From assembly GCA_022750195.1 (NCBI GenBank), contig JAKIWE010000001.1:244672-308671 (forward strand): 64,000 bases of DNA, in the 5' to 3' direction. Numbering within the stretch: position 1 is the first letter of the stretch; every line of letters starts with the position of its first letter. The DNA is from Thermoplasmata archaeon (GTDB lineage: Archaea > Thermoplasmatota > Thermoplasmata > Lutacidiplasmatales > UBA184). Shown here one piece after another: positions 14,149 to 63,008 of the stretch. Below the pieces are notes generated by a model. It saw only the letters and a program-made list of their open reading frames with translations, was not told where the DNA came from and ran no database searches. A program made the translations under genes and the position numbers.

Positions 14149-15405
14149 GTGCGCATCCTCCGTATCGACAGCTGGGACGGTCAGCCGGGGGGCGCCCAGG
14201 ATTACATCCGCGAGATCGGAGTCGAGCTCTCCCGACGGGGCCACACGACCGAGGTGCTCGACCTGGTGAGCGAGCCGATGGACCATCCGCCCCCTGGCCA
14301 GCGTTCGGTGAAGGTCCCCGCCGGCTGGGGGCGTCGCCTGCCGCACGACGTGATCGCCGCTCCCGACGTGGAAGCGGCGATTCGAGCGGCCGTCCGGGCC
14401 TTCCAACCCGACCTGCTCCACCTGCACCACTTCGATGCGGCGTTCGCCTCCATCGGGCGGATGGTGCCGGAGCTTCAGGTCCCTCTCGTCATGACCGCCC
14501 ACGACGCGGAGCTCGTCTGTCCGATCTCCACGCTCGTCCGCCCGGGGAACATCGTTTGCGAGGGAGGGGTGCGTCCTCGCTGTCTGTTCACGGGGTGTCA
14601 CGTCGGATTTGGAGGGCTCTACAATCTCTGGCAGCAACGTGTGTTCGACGCTCAGGTCGCTCCCCACGTGCGCGCGTACCTGTGCCCGAGCTACTCGGTG
14701 GCGGGGTACCTCCAGACGCACGGGTACCGCCCCGCTGTACACTTGCCCTCGTTCGCCCGGATCCCACCGGAGGTCGCTGCCGGCACCGTCGTTGCGCCTC
14801 CTGACGGCGTGGTGCCTACCGTCGGCTACCTGGGTCGATTGGAACAGTACAAGGGAGTCCACGACCTGATCTCGGCGATCGCGATCTTGCGTCGAACCCT
14901 GCCTACGGCTCGCCTCTCTATCGCCGGTGCCGGACCGTACCGGGCAGCGCTGGAAGCATTGGTCGAGCGCGAGGGCCTGCTCGGCGCGGTTGAGTTCGTG
15001 GGTTCGGTGAGCGGAGCCGCGAAGGAGACCTGGTTCAGCTCGGTCCACGTGCTCGCGACCCCTTCCAACTTCTGGGAGAACTTCCCGCTGGTCGCGCTCG
15101 AGGGCCTGGTCCGCGGCCGCCCCGTCGTCGGAACCGACATCGGCGGGATTCCCGACATCGTCGTCCCGGAGGAGACCGGGCTGCTCGTGCCCATCGCGGA
15201 CCCTTCGGCGCTGGCCGCGGCGCTCGGTCGATTGCTGACCGATGAGCAGCTGCGCTCGCGGCTCGGAGGCGAGGGGCGTCGACGCGTGCTGGAGAGGTTT
15301 ACCCCCGAGCTCCACGCGGACCGGTTGGAGGCCGTGTACCGCGCGATCCTCGCCGGGCGGAGCTTCCCCCCGCAGAGCGAGGCCGACGCCTGGCGGATCA
15401 GTTGA
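14149..15405 (+). CDS. Glycosyltransferase family 4 (GT-B)
   Basis: VRILRIDSWDGQPGGAQDY start. C-terminal EGLVRGRPVVGTDIGGIPDIV...ETGLLV motif. GTG at 14149 chosen, giving a 115-bp divergent promoter region. Confidence 0.85.
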   Translation: MRILRIDSWDGQPGGAQDYIREIGVELSRRGHTTEVLDLVSEPMDHPPPGQRSVKVPAGWGRRLPHDVIAAPDVEAAIRAAVRAFQPDLLHLHHFDAAFASIGRMVPELQVPLVMTAHDAELVCPISTLVRPGNIVCEGGVRPRCLFTGCHVGFGGLYNLWQQRVFDAQVAPHVRAYLCPSYSVAGYLQTHGYRPAVHLPSFARIPPEVAAGTVVAPPDGVVPTVGYLGRLEQYKGVHDLISAIAILRRTLPTARLSIAGAGPYRAALEALVEREGLLGAVEFVGSVSGAAKETWFSSVHVLATPSNFWENFPLVALEGLVRGRPVVGTDIGGIPDIVVPEETGLLVPIADPSALAAALGRLLTDEQLRSRLGGEGRRRVLERFTPELHADRLEAVYRAILAGRSFPPQSEADAWRIS

Positions 15406-15442: not shown

Positions 15443-15543
15443 CGCCCTGGTCGGGAAATCCGGTCGCGCGACCACCGCGCGGCTTTCGAACCCGAGTCCC
15501 AAGCTCGACAGACTTAGATCCTAGACCACTAGACTACCAGGGC
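15443..15543 (-). tRNA. tRNA-Asp(GUC) with a ~28-nt insert in the T-loop (candidate non-canonical intron, about 15457-15484)
   Basis: Minus strand reads GCCCTGG TA GTCT AGTGGTCTA GGAT C TAAGT CTGTCGA GCTTG GGAC TCGGG [35 nt] CCCGA CCAGGGC G. Acceptor pairs 7/7 and T stem 5/5. Anticodon loop is CU-GUC-GA. Removing 28 nt restores TTCGAAT. Confidence 0.65.
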
Positions 15544-15760
15544 AGCGCCCGAGCGCGGTACTCTCGGCACCTCTTGAACGTTGCCCGAGTGCCGCGCCGT
15601 CGCACCGCTGCTCGAGAGCAGGTCGCTCGTGGGACCGGGATATACTCCGACGGGCCGGGACGCGGAGGGGTCCACCGCCGGAGAAGCTGCGGTGCAGTTC
15701 CCTAGTAGGGATTTATGAACCGGTAAACGCGCACTCCGGTCCCGCGAGGGGGGAACGAAG

Positions 15761-15904
15761 ATGGGAACCGTTCTTGCTTGGACGACCGCCGTCGCCATGT
15801 TGATCGCCGGGATGTTCGCGTTGCGCCAACTCGGAGTATCGGTCGGGCCGATGATCACGACCATCGTGCGGGGCGTGGCCCACTTCCTAGGGCATCCGCT
15901 CTGA
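15761..15904 (+). CDS. Small hydrophobic protein (47 aa), below the ORF-track length cutoff
   Basis: ATG preceded by gaggggggaacgaag (SD-like). MGTVLAWTTAVAMLIAGMFALRQLGVSVGPMITTIVRGVAHFLGHPL. About 80 percent G/C at third codon positions. TATA-like gatttatga lies ~50 nt upstream. Confidence 0.4.
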   Translation: MGTVLAWTTAVAMLIAGMFALRQLGVSVGPMITTIVRGVAHFLGHPL

Positions 15905-15936
15905 GCCTGCCCGTCCCCGGGGTTGGGGGCGGCTCG

Positions 15937-17109
15937 TTACCCCGCCGGGGGCCTACCCCCCACTTCGCGGAACAGTCGCTCATAGGCCGCCATGGTCACC
16001 TCCTTGCTGCGGTGCTGGAGGACATCGGTTCGGCCCTTTTCTCCCATGCGAAGCCGCAGTTCGTGCGAACCCGCGAGCTCGTCCAGTCGGGCCGCGAACT
16101 CGTCGACCGATCGCACCGCGAACCCGGCCCCGGCCGACGCAAACTCAGAGAACGCACCGGTCTCGAACGCGACGAACGGCCGGCGAACCGTCATCGCCTC
16201 CTGCACGGCGCCGCCGTACCCTTCGTAGGAGCTCCCCTGCGCGTACGCGTCACACGCTAGGAATCCGCGGATCAGCTCCGACCGGGGAATCGTCGCGCCG
16301 TCCCCGAGGAATGTCGCGTGCACGCCCAAGCGTTGGGCCAACGCACGACAGTGCGCCAGGTCGTACGGCTGCCTAGGCCAGTCGGCCCCCGTGATCACGA
16401 GATGCCAGCGGGACTTCGACCGAGCGACCCCCTCTATCACTCGGTCCATCCGCTTGTTCGGTGCATACCCACCCGCGCTCAGCAACAGGAGATCGCTCTC
16501 CATCCCGTGGTCCGTCCGGAAACCCCGGCCCAGCGCGTCGTCGAGCGGGAACTCGTCGACATCGACGGTGTGGGGAATGAGCTCGATCCGTCCCCGGTAG
16601 CCGAACTGACGGAACTGCTCCCTCTCTTGGATCGTCTGCACGACGCACGCATCGACCGCGGCCGCCGCCCGTGGAAAGTACCGCTCCGCGTAGAATCGGT
16701 TGAGAAGGTTCGGGTGCATGAACAGCTGGTAGAAATTCTGTCCCGTGAGGACCTTCGGGTATCGCAACCTAGAGGCGATCGGCAGGAACAGGTCGCTGTC
16801 CCAGATCCGGTTCCCAAAGACGTGGAGGACGTCGGTCGGCTCCTTGAGCAGCCGCCAGTAGCCGACCGGCAGGCGGATCGGCCCTCCGACGAAGTCGAGG
16901 CGACGGACGCGGTAGGTGATCGGAATCACCGGTAGCATTGGAGGGGGTGGGACGACGACCTTCTCGTCGCGCGGCGTAGCTCCGGTCCGCAGGGTCACCA
17001 CCTCGACGTCGTGACCCCGAGAGGCCATCGCGCCGGCCATCATCTCCGCCATCAGCTCCGTTCCCCCCACATCAGGGCGGAAACGGTGCACCGCGATCCG
17101 AATCCTCAC
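15937..17109 (-). CDS. Glycosyltransferase family 4 (GT-B)
   Basis: MRIRIAVHRFRPDVGGTELMAEMMAGAMASRGHDVEVVTL start. C-terminal GSSYEGYGGAVQEAM motif. Confidence 0.85.
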   Translation of the reverse strand: MRIRIAVHRFRPDVGGTELMAEMMAGAMASRGHDVEVVTLRTGATPRDEKVVVPPPPMLPVIPITYRVRRLDFVGGPIRLPVGYWRLLKEPTDVLHVFGNRIWDSDLFLPIASRLRYPKVLTGQNFYQLFMHPNLLNRFYAERYFPRAAAAVDACVVQTIQEREQFRQFGYRGRIELIPHTVDVDEFPLDDALGRGFRTDHGMESDLLLLSAGGYAPNKRMDRVIEGVARSKSRWHLVITGADWPRQPYDLAHCRALAQRLGVHATFLGDGATIPRSELIRGFLACDAYAQGSSYEGYGGAVQEAMTVRRPFVAFETGAFSEFASAGAGFAVRSVDEFAARLDELAGSHELRLRMGEKGRTDVLQHRSKEVTMAAYERLFREVGGRPPAG

Positions 17110-17384
17110 GGAGGGGCCTTCTCAAAGTCGAGACCGTCCCCCGGGCGCGACGACGACCGTCGTGATCGCCGGGTCGACCGGACCGGCCCCCTCGAAGGTC
17201 CCCGCGGAGCTGTGGTCGGGATAGCGGCGGGATCCCGAGCACTGCCGAGCATCGCCATGGAGGGTGGCCCCACCGGGGCCCGGGCTTGAAACCTTGTTGA
17301 GCAGAGGCCGTGCTGCGTCTGCAAAGGATTTGTACCGCGGGCCAGTGAAAGACCTCGGGTCGCGCGTCGCGTCCAGGTCGAGAG

Positions 17385-18347
17385 ATGGCGCGCGTACTCA
17401 TCACCGGGGGCACGGGGTTCCTCGGCTCCTACCTCTCTCGATTCCTCGCCGGGCGAGGGGACCAGGTAACGGCGACCTTCCTCGTCGACCCGGACCCATT
17501 CCTTCGAGAGACCGCCTCGACCACCTCGATCGTACATCTGGACGTTCGGGACGCGAAGGAGGTCGACACCGTCCTTTCGAAGGTCCGTCCCGAAGTGATC
17601 TACCACTTCGCCGGGCAACCGTACGTCCGCCCCTCGTGGGACGACCCCGTAGGTACGTTTCGGACGAATGTCGACGGGACGGTCCACGTGCTCGAGTGGA
17701 TCCGCCAGCATAGTCCGAGCACCAAGTTCGGATTTGCCGGGAGCAGTGCGGCCTACGGGATCGCGGAGCACCAACCGATCCCGGAGAACGAACCGCTGCT
17801 CCCCTCGAGCCCGTACGGCGCGAGCAAGGCCGCGGCCGACGTGATCTGCTATCAGTACTGCGTGAGCTACTCGATCCCGATCTACCGCTTCCGGATCTTC
17901 GCCACGACCGGCCCGGGCAAGACCGGCGACGCGCCCAACGACTTCGCCACGCAAGTCGCGCGGTTGGAGGGGGCCACGGGACGCCGGGTCCTGCGGGTCG
18001 GTTCGTTGGAGACCCGCCGTGACTTCAGCGATGTGCGCGACACTATTCGTGCCCTCTGGACGATCGTCGAGAAGGGGACCCCGGGCGAGGCCTACAACGT
18101 AGGGTCCGGCGTCACGCGAAGCATGAAGGGAATCGTCGAGGGCTTTCTCGGTCTTGCCAAGACCCCCATCGAGGTGGAGGTGGAGGATCGTCGCCTGCGC
18201 CGGGTCGACGAACCGGTGATCCACGCGAAGGTCGACCGCCTACGCGCGCTCGGATGGACGCCGACAGTACCGTGGGAGCAAACGCTCGGCGACCTACTGA
18301 ATCACTGGCGCCAGCACCCTGCTCCTTCGGAGCTGGCTCCCAAGTAG
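17385..18347 (+). CDS. NAD-dependent sugar-nucleotide epimerase/dehydratase (GDP-mannose dehydratase/reductase-like extended SDR)
   Basis: MARVLITGGTGFLGSYL Rossmann motif and YGASKAAAD catalytic YxxxK. Confidence 0.85.
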   Translation: MARVLITGGTGFLGSYLSRFLAGRGDQVTATFLVDPDPFLRETASTTSIVHLDVRDAKEVDTVLSKVRPEVIYHFAGQPYVRPSWDDPVGTFRTNVDGTVHVLEWIRQHSPSTKFGFAGSSAAYGIAEHQPIPENEPLLPSSPYGASKAAADVICYQYCVSYSIPIYRFRIFATTGPGKTGDAPNDFATQVARLEGATGRRVLRVGSLETRRDFSDVRDTIRALWTIVEKGTPGEAYNVGSGVTRSMKGIVEGFLGLAKTPIEVEVEDRRLRRVDEPVIHAKVDRLRALGWTPTVPWEQTLGDLLNHWRQHPAPSELAPK

Positions 18348-18367
18348 TCGTGAACCGGTTGGGGCGA

Positions 18368-18393
18368 TCGCGAACCCGGTCGAGGGTTCGCGA
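18368..18393. terminator. Perfect 10-bp hairpin (TCGCGAACCC-ggtcga-GGGTTCGCGA) between convergent genes
   Basis: Seen directly in the sequence, in the 83-nt gap between the 18347 and 18431 gene ends. Function as a terminator is an inference. Confidence 0.3.
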
Positions 18394-18430
18394 CCGTCGG
18401 GAAGCTCGATCCCGTTCCGGGCGTCCGGGT

Positions 18431-18907
18431 TCAGACCGCCTTGCCGCACATGGTGCAGGTGCGGGTCTGCATGTTGACCGCGCCGCCGCAGGCCGGGCAG
18501 GTCATCACGCCGGCCGTTCCCGGGGCGCCGGGCATCATGCCCGGGCCGCCCATCATCATCGGCATTGGCTTGAACACGAGGGCCAAGATTCCGCCGATGA
18601 GCGCCAGAATGAACCCAAGGATGAAGCCGCCGCCGCCGAGGGGGATGCTGATGACCGCGAAGACGATGATCAGGACGCCCCAAATGACGTGCTGCTGCGG
18701 GCGAACCCATACCATGACGCCTCCAACAATGACCAGAATGCCGAGGAGAGCGCCAATTCCACCGTAGAGTGCTACCGTTCCGCCGGCAGCACCGAATCCG
18801 AGGGACCCGATGATGCTGCCAAGCGCGATCAGAACGATCCCACCCAGCATGATGAATATTCCACCAATCAACGCTAGGACAAACGCTGCGGTCGGCTTAT
18901 TGCTCAT
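18431..18907 (-). CDS. Polytopic membrane protein with Met/Gly/Pro linker and C-terminal zinc ribbon
   Basis: Four Gly-rich hydrophobic segments, then PMPMMMGGPGMMPGAPG, then CPAC-x10-CTMC at the C-terminus. Confidence 0.7.
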   Translation of the reverse strand: MSNKPTAAFVLALIGGIFIMLGGIVLIALGSIIGSLGFGAAGGTVALYGGIGALLGILVIVGGVMVWVRPQQHVIWGVLIIVFAVISIPLGGGGFILGFILALIGGILALVFKPMPMMMGGPGMMPGAPGTAGVMTCPACGGAVNMQTRTCTMCGKAV

Positions 18908-18939
18908 TCGGCTTCCTCAATCGCGAGAAGAAAAACCCG

Positions 18940-20013
18940 TTACTTAAACGTTCGTTTGGAGCGTGCTATGGGGGTTTTTCGTCGCCGAACAGGGTTACTC
19001 TCCGACTTTGAGTGCGCATTGCCGCGCGCCGGGTGTTGGTCGAGCAGTCGACGGAGCCCGGCCGCTCGGACCACGCCGAACGGGGTGACGAACCCCGTGA
19101 CGTACCGTGCCGGCGTGACGTCGAAGGCCGGGTTGCGCACCGGGCTCGCCCGAGGTGCAAGTCGCCGGTCGCCGGCGAAGGCGATCTCCTCCGCTCCTCG
19201 CTCTTCGATCGGGATCTGGTCCCCGTGCTCGAGGGTGGCGTCGAACGTGCTCATCGGCGCCGCGACGTAGAACGGCACGCCGTTCTCGCGCGCCAGCACG
19301 GCCTTCTCGTAGGTCCCGACCTTGTTCGCAACGTCGCCGTTCCGGGCGATCCGGTCGGCGCCGACGATCACCGCGTCGACGTCGCCGCGGTGGATGAAGA
19401 AACCGGCGGCGTTGTCGGCGATGACGGCGTGGGGGATGTGCTCTTGCGCGAGCTCCCACGCGGTGAGTCGCGACCCTTGAAGGAGGGGTCGGGTCTCGTC
19501 GACCCAGACGAACAGTTTCGAGCCCCGGTCATGGGCGACCCGCAACGGGGCGAGCGCGGTCCCCCATTCGACCGTCGCGAGGGCCCCCGCGTTGCAGTGC
19601 GTGAGGACCTTCGGATCCCCCCGGAACAGGCTGGCGCCGGCTTCTCCGATGCGGTGGCATTCATCGACGATCCTGTGCGCGTAAGCGTCGGCTGCGGCTC
19701 GGGGATCCCTCCCGCCGGCCCAAGCCTCACGGACCTCCTCGATCCCAACGAACAGGTCGTGCGCGGTCGGTCGGGTCTCACCGAGAAGTTGGGCTGCGGA
19801 GGCCGGGGTGTGCCTTCGACGCGCCGCCGCGAGAACCATCCCGTACGCGGCGGCGACGCCGATGGAGGGGGCGCCCCGAACGGTGAGCGTCCGGATCGCC
19901 TCCGCGACCTCCTCGACGGTTCGGAGGTGTCGGACGAGGACGCGCCCGGGGAGCTCGCGCTGGTCCAGGAGGTGGAGCCGGCCCCGATCGAACCAGAGCG
20001 CTCGGACGGCCAT
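18940..20013 (-). CDS. mtnA: Methylthioribose-1-phosphate isomerase-like protein (eIF-2B alpha/beta/delta family)
   Basis: LWFDRGRLHLLDQRELPG start, VRGAPSIGVAAAYG motif and GADRIARNGDVANKVGTY motif. The N-terminal extension favours the MtnA type over the ribose-1,5-bisphosphate isomerase type. Confidence 0.8.
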   Translation of the reverse strand: MAVRALWFDRGRLHLLDQRELPGRVLVRHLRTVEEVAEAIRTLTVRGAPSIGVAAAYGMVLAAARRRHTPASAAQLLGETRPTAHDLFVGIEEVREAWAGGRDPRAAADAYAHRIVDECHRIGEAGASLFRGDPKVLTHCNAGALATVEWGTALAPLRVAHDRGSKLFVWVDETRPLLQGSRLTAWELAQEHIPHAVIADNAAGFFIHRGDVDAVIVGADRIARNGDVANKVGTYEKAVLARENGVPFYVAAPMSTFDATLEHGDQIPIEERGAEEIAFAGDRRLAPRASPVRNPAFDVTPARYVTGFVTPFGVVRAAGLRRLLDQHPARGNAHSKSESNPVRRRKTPIARSKRTFK

Positions 20014-20019
20014 AGAGGG

Positions 20020-21042
20020 TTACGCGTCGAAGGTGTGGAGCAGGTCGAGCCACGCCGCGTCGACGACCTTGGTCGCGCGCGTCGCGTCCTCGATCGTCAC
20101 CCCGACCACCTCACCGCCGTGAAGCGCGGCGACGTGTCCGAACTTTCCCGCGAGGGCGAGGTCGACGGCCCCGGCGCCCAGCCGCGTCGAGAGGAGGCGG
20201 TCGAACAGCGTCGGGGGACCCCCGCGCTGGATGTGACCGATCTGGGCGCTGCGCGTCTCGATGCCGGTGGCGCCTTCGATCCGTTTCGCGAGCCAGGCGC
20301 CTACGCCGCGCTCGCGGAGCAGGGCGTGGCCGAACTGGTCGCCCTCCGCTCTGCCGCCGCCTTCCAGGGGCAGGTCGATCCCTTCCGAGGCGACCACGAG
20401 GGCGTAGCCACGCCGAGCGTGGGCCCGTCGGATCTGCTCCATCAGCTTCGCCTCCACGTACGGCTCCTCCGGCACCAACGTCGCGTCGGCGCCGGCGCTG
20501 AGGCCGGTCGCGAGCGCGACCCAGCCCGCGTTCCGACCCATCACTTCGAGGACGATGGCCCGATGGTGACTGCGCGCGGTATCGCGAAGCCGCTCGACCG
20601 CGTCCATGGCGACGCTGCTCGCGGAGTCGAAGCCAAACGTCCAGTCCGTGGCGGCGACGTCGTTGTCCATCGTCTTCGGCACGCCGACGACCTTGCCGCC
20701 GCGCCGGCCGAGCTCGCGAGCGGCGGAGAGCGTATCGTCCCCGCCGATCGCGACGAGGACATCGATCCGGTTCTTCGAGAGCGTCGCAAGGACCTTCTCC
20801 GCGTCGGCCTCGGCCTTGAACGGGTTCGTCCGACTCGTACCGAGGAGGGTGCCACCGAGCGTCACCGATTCGGCGAGCTCGGCGGGGGTGAGCGGCCGAT
20901 GGAGGTCGTCCCGGAGGCCCTTCCAGCCGTCCAGGAACCCCTCGGTCGTATGTCCGAAGTGGGCGGCGCGGTAGACGACGCCTCGGATCGCGCCGTTGAG
21001 GCCCGGGCAGTCCCCACCTCCCGTGAGGACGCCGAACCTCAT
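20020..21042 (-). CDS. pfk: 6-phosphofructokinase, probably PPi-dependent
   Basis: MRFGVLTGGGDCPGLNGAIRGVV. IGGDDTL (Asp where ATP-PFKs have Gly) and PKTMDNDV (Lys where ATP-PFKs have Gly). Confidence 0.88.
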   Translation of the reverse strand: MRFGVLTGGGDCPGLNGAIRGVVYRAAHFGHTTEGFLDGWKGLRDDLHRPLTPAELAESVTLGGTLLGTSRTNPFKAEADAEKVLATLSKNRIDVLVAIGGDDTLSAARELGRRGGKVVGVPKTMDNDVAATDWTFGFDSASSVAMDAVERLRDTARSHHRAIVLEVMGRNAGWVALATGLSAGADATLVPEEPYVEAKLMEQIRRAHARRGYALVVASEGIDLPLEGGGRAEGDQFGHALLRERGVGAWLAKRIEGATGIETRSAQIGHIQRGGPPTLFDRLLSTRLGAGAVDLALAGKFGHVAALHGGEVVGVTIEDATRATKVVDAAWLDLLHTFDA

Positions 21043-57650: not shown

Positions 57651-58343
57651 TTACTTGGGCGGGGTAGAGGGAAGCTGGCCGGTCCGCTCGAGGGCCTCTT
57701 TCAGCTGGCGAAGCCGTCGGGAAAGGATCACGGCCGTGGCGATCATGCCAGCGGCGAGCGCGACCATCGATCCGATGAAGGCGATCGAGAGAAGCAGCGC
57801 GACCTGGAAAAGCCCGCTCGGGAAGGAGAAGCCGCTGCTCCCGTTCCCGCTTCCACCGTTGTTGCCGTTACCGTTGCCATTGCCGCTGTTCGAGGTGACC
57901 GTGAGCGTGGTCGAAGCCGAGGTGTGGCCCGCCGGGCTCGAGCTGTCCGCCACGTCCAGGTGGATGTTGAAGCTGCCCGTGGACGAAGGCTGACAGTTGA
58001 ACGGGTACTGCTGGGAGGAGATCATGACCGGATTGGACGTAGGGGCGCAGTTGCTCGGTGTGTTGTTGAACCAGAGGAAGTAGGGCGCCATCCCCCCCGA
58101 CAACGCGACGCTCCCGCTCGTCTGTGAATTCGCAGAGACGGAGCTCGGCTGGAACGAAAAGCTAGTAATGCTAACCTGAGTGGCGGCGGGCATCGCGAGC
58201 GCGCGACCCACGACCGGCGATGCGACGATTCCGCCGATCGGTCCTGCGATGAAGAGAGTCAGCAGCGCGGTGAGGGCCAGCGCCCCGCACCGACGTTGGA
58301 ATACCGTACGTGTCCTTGCTCGGCGGTCCGCCATTGCGTTCAA
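57651..58343 (-). CDS. Surface-anchored protein, hypothetical
   Basis: N-terminal signal/TM segment, a ~100-aa Ser/Thr-rich beta-like domain with 2 Cys, a GNGNGNGNNGGSGNGSSG linker, a C-terminal TM and a basic tail. Confidence 0.65.
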   Translation of the reverse strand: MNAMADRRARTRTVFQRRCGALALTALLTLFIAGPIGGIVASPVVGRALAMPAATQVSITSFSFQPSSVSANSQTSGSVALSGGMAPYFLWFNNTPSNCAPTSNPVMISSQQYPFNCQPSSTGSFNIHLDVADSSSPAGHTSASTTLTVTSNSGNGNGNGNNGGSGNGSSGFSFPSGLFQVALLLSIAFIGSMVALAAGMIATAVILSRRLRQLKEALERTGQLPSTPPK

Positions 58344-58476
58344 GTGTCGGGGTTTGATATTTCAACATTCGGCGAAGCGTGCAACGTCATCGGTCCGTGG
58401 AGGTCCTCATTCCGGAGCCACCTCGGGTTACGGGCCGTCGAACGCCGATCACGGTCGGTCGCAGTCGAGGTCACAT

Positions 58477-58530
58477 CGCGTTCCTGTCGCTGACACCGCG
58501 CGTTCCCCGCACTCCGTAACGACGCGTTCC
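58477..58530. repeat. Three direct copies of CGCGTTCC spaced 22 and 24 nt apart in an intergenic region
   Basis: Copies at 58477-58484, 58499-58506 and 58523-58530, read directly. Confidence 0.5.
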
Positions 58531-58678
58531 GTCGACAGGCTCGTCGACACGGTTGGACAAAAGAGCCACGGTCACCTGTCGCCCGCGCCGAGCCATGGGA
58601 CGGACAAGTCCAAGGCCTGTAGGAGCATGAGCCGGCGCCCGGTTCAATGATAAATTCGATGATACTCAGTACCGACGC

Positions 58679-58909
58679 GTGAGCGCCAATCCCATGACCA
58701 GCAGTTCGGTCCACGCCGACGTGCTTCACCGGCTTCAGGATAGGAAGTCGGGAAGCAAGACCTGGGACGAGTTCCTCTTGGATCTACTGGAGGACTACGA
58801 CCCTCCCGAGTGGATCGCCGAGATGGATCGACGGAGGCGTCGAGGTCGTGACGTAACGAGGTTGTCCATCGAGCGGACGCATGCGGAGCTCAAACGCCAG
58901 GGCCGATAG
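58679..58909 (+). CDS. Putative antitoxin-like small protein (COG1753/VapB-like pattern)
   Basis: SVHADVLHRLQDRKSGSKTWDEFLLDLL resembles the archaeal 'ISDEAYERLKKLK...SFSEVI' antitoxin pattern. Family assignment is tentative. Confidence 0.5.
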   Translation: MSANPMTSSSVHADVLHRLQDRKSGSKTWDEFLLDLLEDYDPPEWIAEMDRRRRRGRDVTRLSIERTHAELKRQGR

Positions 58910-58912
58910 GCC

Positions 58913-59110
58913 GTGCCGGAACGCCACGTATTCCGAGAGGCAGCGTGGAACGAATTTCGTAGGCCTCCTGCGGAAGTTCGTGAACAATTCGCGTAGGCCA
59001 TCTAGGGCCTGCTTTTCCAGCGGTTCCGACCCGGCCGGGACTGTCGCGTCAAGTGGCTTCGCGAGACTCCAGGGCTCGGGCGTTGTGACTCGACGGTTAC
59101 TTCGAACTAG
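58913..59110 (+). pseudogene. Decayed RelE/ParE-like toxin remnant with two in-frame TAG stops
   Basis: GTG lies 4 nt after the antitoxin stop. VPERHVFREAAWNEFRRPPAEVREQFA-stop-AI-stop-GLLFQRFRPGRDCRVKWLRETPGL. The N-terminus resembles the toxin pattern 'Y.V.F...A.K.L.KLP....RI'. Confidence 0.3.
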
Positions 59111-59630
59111 GGTCTTGGATACGGCCGACCTTGTGATCCCATTCGATCCAGTTGTAGACCGGCGCCTCAACGTTGGTCTGCCAGAGTAAGGCATTGAGTT
59201 CGCCTCGATGCTGGAGTTCCTCTTCCACCAAATGCCACAGGGCTTCTCGTATCGGAATGTGACAATCGTGGCTAGAACCCTTGCCCTTTTCCCTGAAGAT
59301 CGTACGAGAGAGGTCGGCCTCGGTCAGCTCCTTCATGACCCTCCGGATCTGGGTCTGAACATACGCCTCGTCCTTCCTGAGGACTTCGATCGAGGGCGGG
59401 GCGTCGGGGTCCCCGTCCTGCGGCGGAAACTCAAACGTGGCGATGCCTTTCATCCAGAAATAGAGTGCGCCTTGAGAGTGCGCAAAGATGTCGAGGAGCG
59501 AGGGGTACGATGCACCACGATCCCTGGTCAGTTCTGCGGTGGGTAGCTTCGCGAGCGTCTCGATGTAGCCTCGGCGGGCGTCGGCGAGGTAGTCGAACCA
59601 CGCACGAATCGACTCGAGCTCCGAAACCAT
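59097..59630 (-). CDS. DinB/YfiT-like four-helix-bundle protein
   Basis: IRAWFDYLADARRGYIETLAKLP...SLLDIFAHSQGALYFW...EEELQHRGEL. Confidence 0.8.
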   Translation of the reverse strand: MVSELESIRAWFDYLADARRGYIETLAKLPTAELTRDRGASYPSLLDIFAHSQGALYFWMKGIATFEFPPQDGDPDAPPSIEVLRKDEAYVQTQIRRVMKELTEADLSRTIFREKGKGSSHDCHIPIREALWHLVEEELQHRGELNALLWQTNVEAPVYNWIEWDHKVGRIQDPSSK

Positions 59631-59656
59631 CGATACACCGAACGAAGGCTCGCTGA

Positions 59657-60034
59657 CTAAGCCGAGCCCTTGATCAACGCCCCGAACGACTGCTTGCGCT
59701 TGATCTTGCCGTGCTCCACCTCGAAGATGTCGATGTATCGGACGGAGAGTGAGCTTCCGTCCTTCTTCGTCACGTGAGCCGTTCCTTCAGCGACCACGAC
59801 GTTGTTCTCTTCGGTAAGCCGATGAAGCACGTTCCGGAGGTCGTCGTCTCCGTAATTCTTGATGTGGGCATCCTTCCCTCGGGTAACTGCCCCTGAGGCG
59901 GGTACCCCGTCGCCCCACTCTACCCATTCCACATCGTCGGCCAGCAATGAGCCGAGCTTCGATTTGTCAGCGGTGGCCAGGTAGGTCTCGATGAGCTGCT
60001 TGTTCGGGCTCAATCCCGCCATGACCACCTGCAC
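59657..60034 (-). CDS. SnoaL/NTF2-like fold protein
   Basis: NKQLIETYLATADKSKLGSLLADDVEWVEWGD...YIDIFEVEHGKIKR. Confidence 0.8.
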   Translation of the reverse strand: MQVVMAGLSPNKQLIETYLATADKSKLGSLLADDVEWVEWGDGVPASGAVTRGKDAHIKNYGDDDLRNVLHRLTEENNVVVAEGTAHVTKKDGSSLSVRYIDIFEVEHGKIKRKQSFGALIKGSA

Positions 60035-60219
60035 CGCCGGCCTTCATTATGTACGCACCGTGCCCTCGAAACCAAGACAGTTGGACGGCAAGAATCGGCG
60101 ACGGTGACGCCAGGATCTTGAGTCCACCCCCACGGTACAGAAACTACCCCCGGAATCCTGATGCCCGCCCGAGGCGACACGAGATTCACCATGGGATAGC
60201 CCCCGACGGAGTCGAGTCT

Positions 60220-60234
60220 TAGCCCCGAGCGGAT
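60220..60234 (-). repeat. 15-nt exact copy of the 3' end of the tRNA-Gln gene (att-like)
   Basis: tagccccgagcggat is identical to 61558-61572. Confidence 0.55.
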
Positions 60235-60518
60235 CTGCTAGCTGCCACAGAATCAAGGGGATACAATCCACGGGCGAGAGTATTCTGCGCCACGAGGATA
60301 GGTAACGTAATTTTGCACTGTCTCCCGCCATTGCTCGTCCCAGCCGCCCCGTAAAGGTACGGCCGACCCGGAGATCCGCAGTGCCCAGAAATGTTCGGGG
60401 CGCAGGCCCGTCAGAGCCCGGACCGTCCACAGATCCTTCGAGGCAATGGGTCTCGACGAGAAGCTACTGCCCTCCGTGCCCTTCTATAGCGACGCCGCAA
60501 TCGCTGGGGTCGGGGAAG

Positions 60519-60816
60519 TTGGTGCCGGATTGCGACAGTGTCCACGAACAGCTCGATCGGTTCGCGAACGCTGAAATCCGTGTTGGGACCCTCCCGTCAT
60601 GGACCCGTGTCCAAGGTAGAGTCGCCTGGACTGTCTGGAGAGGGCCCCTAGACATGCTCGGTGAAGCTTGGGTCTTTTTTTTATCGAAAGGTCCGAGCTG
60701 GGCATCCGGGCCCCCCGGACGGTCCGCCAGGGGAGGTCTTTGTCTGTCGACCCGAGGACCATGCCGCCGACGCTCAGAGCCGGCTCCTGACACTGCTGTA
60801 CCTGCCGATCGAGTAG
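60519..60816 (+). pseudogene. GyrI-like (SHS2 repeat) small-molecule-binding domain fragment, frameshifted in a T8 run
   Basis: Frame 0 reads ...AEIRVGTLPSW...VWRGPLDMLGEAWVFF. After the T8 run at 60675-60682 the sense continues in the +1 frame as ...GHPGPPDGPPGEVFVCRPEDHAADAQSRLLTLLYLPIE-stop. Confidence 0.4.
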
Positions 60817-60929
60817 GCAATCGACCTTGTCGGAACGCTCACTTGACCCAAGGGACCCATTGAGTGACGATGCCCCTTTGGATCGAGGTCAGTCGCAGTA
60901 CCCGATGGCCCTCTGACGCGTTCGAACAA

Positions 60930-60953
60930 TAACCCCGAGCGGACTCGAACCGC
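60930..60953 (-). repeat. 24-nt degenerate copy (22/24) of the tRNA-Gln 3' end (T arm plus acceptor)
   Basis: taaccccgagcggactcgaaccgc compared with tagccccgagcggattcgaaccgc at 61558-61581. I could not find a matching 5' acceptor strand or anticodon arm. Confidence 0.55.
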
Positions 60954-61098
60954 CTACGTCCCCCGGTTCCGATTCCGGCGGCCGCGGTGCCCTAGGTTGC
61001 AACGAACATTGCGGGGGAGTCGCTAACGACGGAGTCCCACCTACCCCCTAAGTACGTAGCACGATTCCTCGAGGCCAGAGCAGGCCCCCAATCAGCGA

Positions 61099-61410
61099 TT
61101 GGAGACGGAGTGTGTGGAAGGCTCCATGGTTTCAGAATCGGAGGTGAGGAGGCGATTTACGCCAGTAGGGACCCTGGATTCCATTCTCGAGGAGGAGCAG
61201 GCTCGAGAACGGTGGTCGGACAACCGTCATCTTGTTCACTACTTACCCCTCGGGGTCGTCACTGCGGGAGCCGGGTCGTACCTCATCCTTTGGCACCCCG
61301 GGATCAGTGTGACAGCCGGCATCGAACTGGGCCTGGGCTATTGGGCTATCGTTGCGATTGGGAGCGTCATCCTGGTGCGCGCGTGGAGGTTTCGCGGCCC
61401 CCCCCGCTGA
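61099..61410 (+). CDS. Small two-TM hypothetical protein
   Basis: LVHYLPLGVVTAGAGSYLILW and GIELGLGYWAIVAIGSVILV segments. Lies inside the tRNA-flanked islet. Confidence 0.3.
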   Translation: METECVEGSMVSESEVRRRFTPVGTLDSILEEEQARERWSDNRHLVHYLPLGVVTAGAGSYLILWHPGISVTAGIELGLGYWAIVAIGSVILVRAWRFRGPPR

Positions 61411-61557
61411 TAGTCGGTGACCTGACCCTACTTCACGCGCGGCATGTCGAAAAAGCGCTGGGTAGGCGCTCCTCATTTGGGACGTGGGCCCTCTCTCGCC
61501 TTCGCGAAGCGAAGGCGTAGAAGGGGCTAAGGGACCGCCCCGGTCGGATCCGAGCCA

Positions 61558-61630
61558 TAGCCCCGAGCGGATTCGAACCGCTGTCGCCGGCTCCAAAGGC
61601 CAGCATGCTTGGCCACTACACCACGGGGCT
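61558..61630 (-). tRNA. tRNA-Gln(UUG)
   Basis: AGCCCCG TG GTGT AGTGGCCAA GCAT G CTGGC CTTTGGA GCCGG CGAC AGCGG TTCGAAT CCGCT CGGGGCT A. 73 nt, no encoded CCA. Confidence 0.9.
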
Positions 61631-61654
61631 GTCAGCGCAACGGAGGACCGGGCG

Positions 61655-61663
61655 TAATAAACT
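61655..61663 (-). promoter_or_regulatory. TATA box candidate for tRNA-Gln (AGTTTATTA on the minus strand)
   Basis: 25-33 nt upstream of the tRNA 5' end. Confidence 0.5.
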
Positions 61664-61781
61664 CGCGGAGTCCGATGGCGTGGACCGAGGAGTGACCCCT
61701 TCGAGGAGCCTCGCTCACGTCTGGCTGTGGGGACGGCTCTTGCGCTGAAGGTTCGTGCTTGGCCACCCACCCTACTGGGAA

Positions 61782-63008
61782 TCACGCCGCCGGGGTCGCA
61801 GAGGCCTTTGCCGGAGCCCGGTTCGGCCGCACCAAGACGAGGAGGGGGAGCAGCGCAAGACAGAGTAGTCCGGTGAGGAGCCAAGCAATCAAGTAACCGT
61901 GCAGGGCCGCCACGAATCCAAAGCCGATCGCGAGCCCTCCGCCGACCATCACTTGGATCGAGTTGATCACGGCGACCCCCAACGCCAGCCCTTCCCCTTC
62001 GCTCTCCGGGAGGTAAGCCGGGATCAGGTAGAGCACGGCGAACACCATCCCGTCCACGAACCCGAGGACCGCGAACAACGGCCAGAGGACCCACAGCGGC
62101 GCGAACGGAAGACCGAGGACGAGGATGCCCGTGGCGGCCCCCAGGATCCCGATCATCCATCTCCGATCCCATCCACGCTCGGCCAACCACCCTCCCACAG
62201 GCCCCCCGGGGAAGGAGATCACGACGGTCAGCGCGGAGAGCGCCGCGGCGGTCCCGATTCCCCACTCGGGGTGGACGTCGTGCGCGTATTGTACGAAGTA
62301 CTGCGCGACCACATAGATCGCGGTCCAGAACCCGGTCAACCCGACGGACAACGCCCAGATCGAACGGGACCGCAGGACGACGCGACCGGTCGCGAGAACG
62401 GCGCTCACCGAGCGACGAACGCTCGTCGCGACCACCGGGGGAAGGACCCACGCCGCGATTGCGGTGAGCAGCCCGAGCACGAGACCGCCCACCCCGAGCG
62501 TGACCGGCCAGCCGAAGGCGGTGCCCGCCGCAGCCCCCGCGAACAGTCCGATCGCGCCCCCCACGCTGAAGCCGCCGTTGTACAGCCCGACGATCGGTCC
62601 GCGGACGCCGGGCGGATAGTACGAGGCGATCAAGCTCAGCGCCGGTGAGAAGAAGAACGCCGCCCCCACCCCGGCTCCGAAGCGCGCCAGGGCGAGCCAG
62701 GTCCAAGTAGGAGCCAACGCGGAAAGGGCGCAACACACCGACATCGCGGCGAGTCCCGCCAGCGAGACACGACGAGCGTCCCAACGGATCGAGGCGAGCC
62801 CCGCGGGGACCTGGAAGAGCCCTACGCCGAGAAGAAACAGCCCAAGAACGAGACCGAGCTCCGCCGTGCTGGCCCCGAGACCAGCTCCGATCAGGGGAAG
62901 GACGGCGCCGACATTGTACCAGTTGAACGCGTAGACGACACGAGCGACGAACAGCGCGGCCGCGGGTCGGGTCCGTTGACCCGGCGGGAGCACCACCTCG
63001 CGGCTCAC
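61782..63008 (-). CDS. MFS transporter
   Basis: 12 hydrophobic segments. FQVPAGLASIRWDARRV loop motif. Confidence 0.85.
   Translation of the reverse strand: MSREVVLPPGQRTRPAAALFVARVVYAFNWYNVGAVLPLIGAGLGASTAELGLVLGLFLLGVGLFQVPAGLASIRWDARRVSLAGLAAMSVCCALSALAPTWTWLALARFGAGVGAAFFFSPALSLIASYYPPGVRGPIVGLYNGGFSVGGAIGLFAGAAAGTAFGWPVTLGVGGLVLGLLTAIAAWVLPPVVATSVRRSVSAVLATGRVVLRSRSIWALSVGLTGFWTAIYVVAQYFVQYAHDVHPEWGIGTAAALSALTVVISFPGGPVGGWLAERGWDRRWMIGILGAATGILVLGLPFAPLWVLWPLFAVLGFVDGMVFAVLYLIPAYLPESEGEGLALGVAVINSIQVMVGGGLAIGFGFVAALHGYLIAWLLTGLLCLALLPLLVLVRPNRAPAKASATPAA

Follow-up and report, generated by a model that had tools for sequence, protein, structure and literature searches.

A tRNA-Asp(GUC) gene of an uncultured Thermoplasmata archaeon with a probable protein-spliced intron at T-loop position 59/60

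The stretch of 64,000 nucleotides (nt) analyzed here (contig JAKIWE010000001.1, positions 244,672 to 308,671, from a Thermoplasmata archaeon; hereafter, the window) contains at 15443..15543 on its minus strand a tRNA gene in which 35 nt occupy the place of the seven-nucleotide T-loop. This raises the question of whether the locus encodes a working tRNA and, if so, what becomes of the additional nucleotides. A preliminary description of the sequence had proposed a tRNA-Asp(GUC) gene with an insert of ~28 nt in the T-loop, and this is borne out by our analyses: the insert lies at 15457..15484, between tRNA positions 59 and 60, and the sequence without it forms a perfect cloverleaf. Judging from sequence comparisons, we estimate with a probability of about 0.9 that the locus is a working tRNA-Asp(GUC) gene of an archaeon and that its 28-nt intron at position 59/60 is spliced by proteins. 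Both this type of intron and its position are already known; the locus is a genuine further case and involves no new mechanism.

The whole pre-tRNA-Asp(GUC) gene is 101 nt long, with G1 at 15543, the discriminator G73 at 15443, and no encoded CCA at its 3′ end. Read on the minus strand from 15543, the acceptor strand GCCCTGG is followed by UA, the D-arm strand GTCT, the D loop AGTGGTCTA, GGAT and a C; next come the anticodon stem strand TAAGT, the loop CTGTCGA, the opposite strand GCTTG and the variable loop GGAC; and the 3′ part consists of the T-stem strand TCGGG, the 35 nt in the place of the T-loop, CCCGA, CCAGGGC and the G at 15443. The 5′ exon (tRNA positions 1-59; 15485..15543, minus strand) extends from the 5′ strand of the acceptor through T-loop nucleotides U54-A59, and includes the anticodon GUC (Asp) at 15507..15509 in the loop CUGUCGA, as established by direct reading and by ARAGORN. 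The 3′ exon (positions 60-73; 15443..15456, minus strand) is formed by U60, CCCGA, CCAGGGC and G73. Direct reading also confirmed the pairing that had been described, with seven out of seven Watson-Crick pairs in the acceptor stem (GCCCTGG/CCAGGGC) and five out of five in the T stem (TCGGG/CCCGA); the anticodon stem includes two U·G pairs. Removal of the 28-nt intron, AGCCGCGCGGUGGUCGCGCGACCGGAUU (15457..15484, minus strand), leaves the T-loop TTCGAAT, which is indeed identical, as had been noted, to that of the tRNA-Gln gene at 61558-61630. The predicted spliced junction reads ...GGGTTCGAA|TCCCGACC..., that is, TTCGAA|TCCCGA. When the sequence lacking these 28 nt was submitted to ARAGORN, the program returned a flawless 73-nt tRNA-Asp(gtc) cloverleaf. 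The features of the tRNA-Asp(GUC) class are all present: GUC in a 7-nt loop, stems of 7, 4, 5 and 5 bp, and the discriminator G73. The pattern of a T arm with an insert occurs once in the window, compared to zero occurrences in 100 shuffles; a scan of the window with a custom script revealed no T-loop-intron tRNA other than tRNA-Asp. The 5′ exon sequence of the window is identical in five other species.

Standard gene finders misread this gene, as had been expected. Run on the raw window, with or without its intron mode, ARAGORN gives only a forced 76-nt model at 15470-15545, and the Rfam tRNA model does not match the precursor at its gathering score; a permissive threshold gives a partial match of 18.2 bits over model positions 8-63 (threshold 29), besides chance microRNA matches. 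We regard it as extremely unlikely that this uninterrupted 76-nt tRNA-Asp is correct. It is reported by ARAGORN, but its acceptor contains one C·C mismatch along with three G·U pairs, its T stem has 4 bp, Rfam supports it with no more than the partial 18.2 bits, and its 3′ half consists of intron sequence, which none of the homologues conserves. To score the spliced form we relied on a proxy, in which the Rfam bits of intron-less orthologues stand in for the spliced window sequence: locus L201 scored 58.5 bits and locus L020, which has the same D arm, 60.9 bits, against the threshold of 29. Because ARAGORN and Rfam mis-call or miss the gene, genomes of the intron-bearing clade can seem to be without a proper tRNA-Asp, and annotating tRNA-Asp in this clade requires a finder that is aware of the bulge-helix-bulge (BHB) motif. 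tRNAscan-SE 2.0 looks for non-canonical introns by default (PMC8450103). A candidate tRNA-Gly inside a glycosyltransferase open reading frame near 14275-14470 was rejected as a false positive, as it appears only after an artificial deletion of 56 nt.

In a BHB motif, a 3-nt bulge follows each strand of a 4-bp central helix, and cleavage occurs after the second bulge nucleotide. The 59/60 register was derived from this geometry and checked against a canonical 37/38 intron. The preliminary description had stated that no textbook BHB could be drawn by eye, and this has to be corrected: a strict hBHBh′ motif, in which the central helix and its two bulges are flanked by an outer helix h and an intron helix h′, is present at the proposed junctions, and the isolated T-arm segment adopts it at the minimum of free energy (RNAfold; (((((((((...(.((((((.....)))))).)))))...))))), -18.5 kcal/mol). 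All elements lie on the minus strand. The outer helix h is the T stem, in which UCGGG (positions 49-53; 15491..15495) pairs with CCCGA (15451-15455) over five out of five pairs that are invariant in 102 sequences. The central helix H is formed by the exon strand U54 U55 C56 G57 (15487..15490) and the intron strand C23 G24 G25 A26 (15459..15462), and this UUCG/CGGA helix consists of the four pairs U-A, U·G, C-G and G-C; the intron strand reads CGGA or CGAA in 90/105 homologues. The 5′ bulge, A58 A59|A(i1), spans 15484..15486, with the predicted cut at 15485|15484, and the 3′ bulge, U(i27) U(i28)|U60, spans 15456..15458, with the predicted cut at 15457|15456. The intron helix h′ (15463..15483) is made up of the pair G(i2, 15483):C(i22, 15463), a C·A mismatch and a 6-bp stem, CGCGCG (15476-15481) with CGCGCG (15465-15470), closed by the loop GUGGU (15471-15475); the fold thus includes the hairpin that had been described for the insert. 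The strict 3-4-3 geometry is therefore present, with two 3-nt bulges on opposite strands and a 4-bp helix between them, and both flanking helices exist, h′ being interrupted by a mismatch in the window. A self-splicing group I intron was rejected: the insert has 28 nt and lies in the T-loop, compared to a ribozyme core of at least 200 nt and an anticodon-loop position, and Rfam gave no intron family. The extent of the intron is supported by the BHB register, by the T-arm fold, and by introns at the same site in 104 loci.

These loci were obtained by scanning species-representative genomes for the D arm and anticodon loop, which gave 110 loci. An insert at the same site, with a length of 27-34 nt (mode 33), is carried by 104 of them, almost all labelled as Thermoplasmata metagenome-assembled genomes (MAGs), and the remaining six, which lack it, bear the labels Micrarchaeota, Nanoarchaeia or Halobacteriales. 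A further scan gave at least 11 more intron-bearing tRNA-Asp genes with one different D-loop base, and the interrupted gene is found in at least 115 Thermoplasmata assemblies, Ca. Lutacidiplasmatales among them. The 104 loci and the window provide 105 precursors, which contain 102 distinct introns and only nine distinct spliced exon sequences, all of 73 nt. Within the intron, only the 3′ end (C-CGRA-AN) is conserved; it comprises the partner of the T-loop and the bulge. Helix H is completely paired (4/4) in 97/105 precursors, and 98% of its cells are paired in alignment A1, which contains the window and 101 homologues (102 sequences); the closing pair of h′ is G:C in 101/105, the 5′ bulge is AA|N in 105/105, and the 3′ bulge always ends in U60. 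Conservation within the intron does not extend beyond what the splicing motif needs, and the intron therefore probably lacks an independent function. It appears to be fixed across the Lutacidiplasmatales-like clade; that it shields the gene from integrating elements is speculation.

The comparison of the homologues also supports the proposed structure as a whole. Without any hint, RNAalifold predicted the intron hairpin together with the acceptor and anticodon stems and all but one of the five T-stem pairs; the D stem was missing in its cloverleaf register. When our structure was imposed on alignment A1, 96.2% of the cells were paired, versus 89.7% in shuffled alignments, and 177 double-change cells were observed versus 40.9 expected; none of 500 shuffles reached the observed values, and slid controls gave 29-62% paired cells. 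Compensatory changes occur at every pair of the intron hairpin. The acceptor and anticodon stems also covary, which shows that selection maintains the exons as a tRNA, and every stem of the tRNA remains paired across the 102 sequences. The D stem has two G·U pairs (GUCU/GGAU) in all 102 intron-bearing genes (window 15518-15534; A1 columns 10-13 and 23-26). Among the intron-less orthologues, D stems with Watson-Crick pairing (GUGU/AUCA or GUCU/AUGA) predominate, L020, with the G·U form, being an exception.

Intron-less orthologues provide a control for the junction. A search for uninterrupted genes with this T arm and acceptor yielded at least 119 intron-less tRNA-Asp genes, from Methanomassiliicoccales, other Thermoplasmata, Altiarchaeales and others. 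Their T-loop, TTCGAAT or TTCAAAT, is exactly the product of splicing at 59/60, with U60 directly following A59. The alternative register, 58/59, was rejected, as it would yield TTCGACT in most relatives. The closest intron-less gene among the matches listed is identical to the predicted product of the window at 67/73 positions.

Is it possible, then, that the window gene is a tRNA pseudogene created by random insertion, and that a working tRNA-Asp is located elsewhere in the genome? On the one hand, standard finders fail on the gene, and the search for a second copy in this genome covered the window; an intact tRNA-Asp may exist outside it. On the other hand, no assembly among the matches listed, whose accession prefixes were compared by eye, belongs to both the intron-bearing and the intron-less set, which is partial evidence against a second tRNA-Asp copy. 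Moreover, in at least 115 species-level assemblies the insert varies and the exons hardly change, compensatory changes keep the acceptor and anticodon stems paired, and a promoter-like box has been retained upstream at a constant distance. We therefore consider a pseudogene very unlikely. As to this box, the preliminary description had seen no clear TATA box upstream, and a conserved AT-rich element was nevertheless found there. In the window it occupies 15571..15583 (minus strand), with CAAC at 15580-15583 followed by TTCAAGAG at 15571-15578; TTCAAGAG lies 28-35 nt upstream of G1, and the whole CAAC/TTCAAGAG element at -40..-28. In 103 homologous upstream regions, the box has the consensus AA..TTCATAG at a fixed position, with 74-94% A+T compared to a background of ~20%; it is located at -37..-28 from G1 in most homologues, the window version being ~2 nt further upstream. 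A further short AT patch is found in the same regions at -16..-14, and position -1 is T in 93%. Judged by its sequence and location, the box is likely a promoter consisting of a B recognition element (BRE) and a TATA box. The tRNA-Gln(UUG) gene at 61558-61630 (minus strand) has a clear TTTATTA box at 61655-61661, that is, at -31..-25.

The most likely mechanism by which the intron would be removed is cleavage by the splicing endonuclease EndA followed by ligation. Transcription would probably start from the BRE/TATA-like box located ~30 nt upstream. The strict BHB of the precursor can be read from the sequence: U54-G57 pair with the intron CGGA, with the T stem on one side and the G:C pair plus the GC hairpin on the other. 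According to the established pathway of archaea, EndA is predicted to cut after the second nucleotide of each bulge (15485|15484 and 15457|15456), which would leave a 2′,3′-cyclic phosphate and a 5′-OH, and an RtcB-type ligase would then link the exons of 59 and 14 nt, giving a tRNA of 73 nt whose T-loop, UUCGAAU, is normal. The intron would be discarded or circularised. Processing of the ends and addition of CCA, which has to be added afterwards because it is not encoded, would follow splicing, and the T-loop could be modified only once splicing is done. It has been reported that archaeal endonucleases recognise the BHB whatever the mature domain in which it lies, T-arm loops included, and that the homodimeric endonuclease of Ferroplasma cuts minimal BHB substrates (PMC8707768). 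Based on this, a Thermoplasmata-type enzyme should be able to process a strict motif at 59/60.

Several observations weigh against this reading. First, we infer the splicing of the window precursor from its sequence. Second, the h′ helix beside the bulge consists of a single G:C pair followed by a mismatch, and the minimum-free-energy fold of the full precursor (-45.7 kcal/mol) is not a cloverleaf, the cloverleaf with BHB having -35.2 kcal/mol. Helix H is open in the isolated T-arm fold of 100/105 homologues; for 98 of these, the BHB conformer is 0.2-5.2 kcal/mol less stable than the structure of minimum free energy. Thermodynamic modelling hence lends the BHB weak support, and because helix H is so often unformed in the energy folds, the case for it rests on the comparative data and not on energies. 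Third, the changes in helix H are mostly one-sided, as the exon strand is invariant, and the sole compensatory case is G:C→A:U. Fourth, A57 is mismatched, and helix H reduced to three pairs, in eight loci (L004, L016, L026, L030, L054, L078, L088 and L107); these variants may represent a relaxed motif that needs an enzyme of broader specificity. Fifth, a tblastn search of the window and of all loci identified no EndA in the window or in the Thermoplasmata loci, and RtcB did not turn up in the window, although no search aimed at RtcB was made.

The subclade to which the mismatched variants belong comprises ten loci, with the acceptor GCCCCGA, the T-loop TTCAAA and A57 in tRNA-Asp; in two of them, L043 and L056, an intron U restores the pair with A57 (A:U). 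The query for the EndA search was a M. jannaschii EndA sequence that matches PDB 1a79 over the full 171-residue chain. Its only tblastn matches were in three Hermodarchaeota-like loci, and a search of a large protein database with EndA retrieved only α4-type relatives, none of which was traced to Lutacidiplasmatales. The EndA genes of these three loci, L112 (43-637), L168 (1014-1573) and L181 (7428-7959), encode proteins that are 33-36% identical to M. jannaschii EndA, and no more than ~100 nt separate each of them from a tRNA-Arg(CCG) gene, itself interrupted by a T-loop intron at 59/60.

Some of these points would also fit a mature tRNA that retains the 28-nt insert as an enlarged T-loop with an extra hairpin arm. 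Every homologue has a stable GC hairpin in the insert, helix H is often unformed in thermodynamic folds, and splicing is deduced from sequence. However, nucleotides U54-A58 of the T-loop are needed for the tertiary interaction between the D-loop and the T-loop, and a retained insert would disrupt them. Furthermore, the conserved features of the intron are only those that define the BHB (CGRA opposite U54-G57, the two 3-nt bulges and the closing G:C pair), whereas its length (27-34 nt) and sequence otherwise drift freely, and the uninterrupted loop works in sister lineages. Retention of the insert thus seems very unlikely to us, and we favor an intron that is spliced out.

How does the intron compare with those described before? 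The interest and rarity attributed to it in the preliminary description were overstated: 59/60 is a documented non-canonical intron site of archaeal tRNAs (PMC4090602, PMC3239211), and similar introns occur in other tRNAs of Thermoplasmata and Asgard archaea. The closest parallel is found in ARMAN-2 (Ca. Micrarchaeum acidiphilum), which has 59/60 introns in pre-tRNA-Pro(GGG), with a strict hBHBh′ motif, and in pre-tRNA-Cys(GCA), with a relaxed hBH motif (PMC3239211). The T-loop site is the same, the strict motif is that of the tRNA-Pro, and the same splicing logic is expected. In contrast, ARMAN-2 belongs to DPANN and has an ε2 endonuclease, whereas the host here is a member of Thermoplasmata and the interrupted tRNA is a different one; and while the tRNA-Pro of ARMAN-2 has two adjacent T-loop introns, tRNA-Asp has one, conserved in >100 species. 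The introns of Crenarchaeota/Thermoproteales and Thaumarchaeota (PMC4090602) are likewise short and bounded by a BHB, with 59/60 among the listed positions and only the motif conserved. These lineages, however, possess an (αβ)2 endonuclease, their motifs are often relaxed, and their genes often contain several introns; the intron described here is strict and present in a euryarchaeal-type lineage whose cultured relatives have a homodimeric enzyme. With the canonical hBHBh′ introns at 37/38 it shares the 3-nt bulge, 4-bp helix and 3-nt bulge, and the same enzymes and chemistry are expected, but its central helix involves T-loop nucleotides 54-57 and its outer helix is the T stem, instead of the anticodon loop and stem. 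Finally, tRNA genes of the Guillardia theta nucleomorph contain T-arm introns (cited in PMC4090602), which likewise lie in the TΨC arm of genes that are normal in other respects; these are eukaryotic, have a length of 3-24 nt, lack a clear BHB, and their mechanism is unknown. In the literature that we searched (PMC4033280, PMC9287336), Thermoplasmata are not listed among the lineages with non-canonical or multiple tRNA introns.

The tRNA-Asp gene is not the only one with such an intron. A scan for the BHB signature, whose listed matches are a lower bound, revealed 59/60-type T-loop introns in at least tRNA-Lys(UUU), tRNA-Arg and tRNA-Gly of Thermoplasmata. In sister Thermoplasmata or 'Methanobacteriota EA_' MAGs, tRNA-Lys(UUU) contains two introns, a canonical one at 37/38 and one at 59/60 (L114, L123, L133, L136, L137, L144, L160, L161, L170, L190, L191 and L195, and further L134, L198 and L142), and the MAGs with this arrangement and an intron-less tRNA-Asp include SMAG_U11571, U8782, U10571, U11616, U13408, MFD01299.bin.2.33, EA_6 and EA_11. 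The same double-intron layout is present in tRNA-Arg(CCG) of L122 and L194. In MAGs of the Methanomassiliicoccales/Methanomethylophilaceae type (L156, L169, L178, L183 and L199), tRNA-Arg(UCU) has a 59/60 intron of 26-28 nt, and cultured Methanomassiliicoccales relatives may carry it too. In one MAG, YP4.bin73 (L081, L174), the interrupted tRNA-Asp occurs alongside a tRNA-Gly(UCC) whose 59/60 intron has 32 nt and shows no obvious sequence likeness to that of the tRNA-Asp. Outside Thermoplasmata, Asgard MAGs (Hermod-, Thor- and Jord-archaeia) have 59/60 introns with the same BHB signature in tRNA-Arg, Leu, Gly and Glu (L112, L118, L140, L143, L153, L157, L168, L171, L179 and others). The signature is also matched by Odin-/Promethearchaeota loci L121, L135, L162 and L166, in which ARAGORN calls no tRNA.

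These data extend the documented 59/60 position to soil Thermoplasmata of the Lutacidiplasmatales-like type, where the intron is kept in >100 species. Because the motif is all that is conserved, the introns show cleanly, as a natural data set, which features the splicing endonuclease requires. Together with the related T-loop introns of tRNA-Lys, Arg and Gly, they are a test case for the idea that the architecture of the endonuclease limits the position of introns. It is conceivable, though we hold it only tentatively and think it rather doubtful, that 59/60 introns have spread and become fixed in tRNA-Asp, Lys, Arg and Gly across large uncultured Thermoplasmata clades whose cultured relatives have a homodimeric α′2 enzyme. 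If these lineages do use an α′2 enzyme, and especially if it cuts the mismatched helix H of the TTCA subclade, non-canonical introns would extend beyond (αβ)2/ε2 lineages, and the accepted picture of co-evolution between intron position and endonuclease architecture would need revising.

With respect to the host, the window has a G+C content of ~68%, and its segment 12211-16695 is collinear with, and 73% identical to, L018 from MAG SubAcS15-120. The AcS and SubAcS MAGs and UBA184 are Ca. Lutacidiplasmatales (TMEG) genomes from acidic soils with 67-71% G+C (PMC9287336). By sequence, then, the window comes from a high-GC, uncultured member of Thermoplasmata that stands close to Ca. Lutacidiplasmatales. 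The interrupted gene is present in MAGs of that study (L001, L018, L021, L031, L045, L049, L092, L106, L149, L167 and L175); the study used tRNAscan-SE 2.0.5 and never mentions introns (PMC9287336).

The genes that neighbor tRNA-Asp encode a prenyltransferase, epimerases, two glycosyltransferases and an IF-2B-family protein, with no integrase among them. This bears on a last explanation, namely that the interruption is a scar or attachment site of a mobile element that integrated in the tRNA gene. The 3′ halves of tRNA genes are common integration targets, as this explanation requires, but the insert has merely 28 nt, the flanks consist of glycosyltransferase, epimerase and prenyltransferase genes, the 3′ end of the tRNA is not duplicated in the 64-kb window, where the 3′ exon is single copy, and the site of the insert is identical in >100 species. 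A mobile-element origin is thus hardly credible.

The block corresponding to window positions 19042-21000 adjoins tRNA-Asp in many relatives. In most of them (L042, L015, L074 and others) it is separated from the gene by ~0.3-0.5 kb; in the window this spacing is ~3.5 kb and is filled by sugar-modification genes (15544-19041). L018 has the same glycosyltransferase neighborhood around the gene, and the locus ends before the spacing can be read. The window region 58001-62000, which includes the tRNA-Gln(UUG) gene, has a G+C content of 60-62%, compared to ~69% elsewhere.

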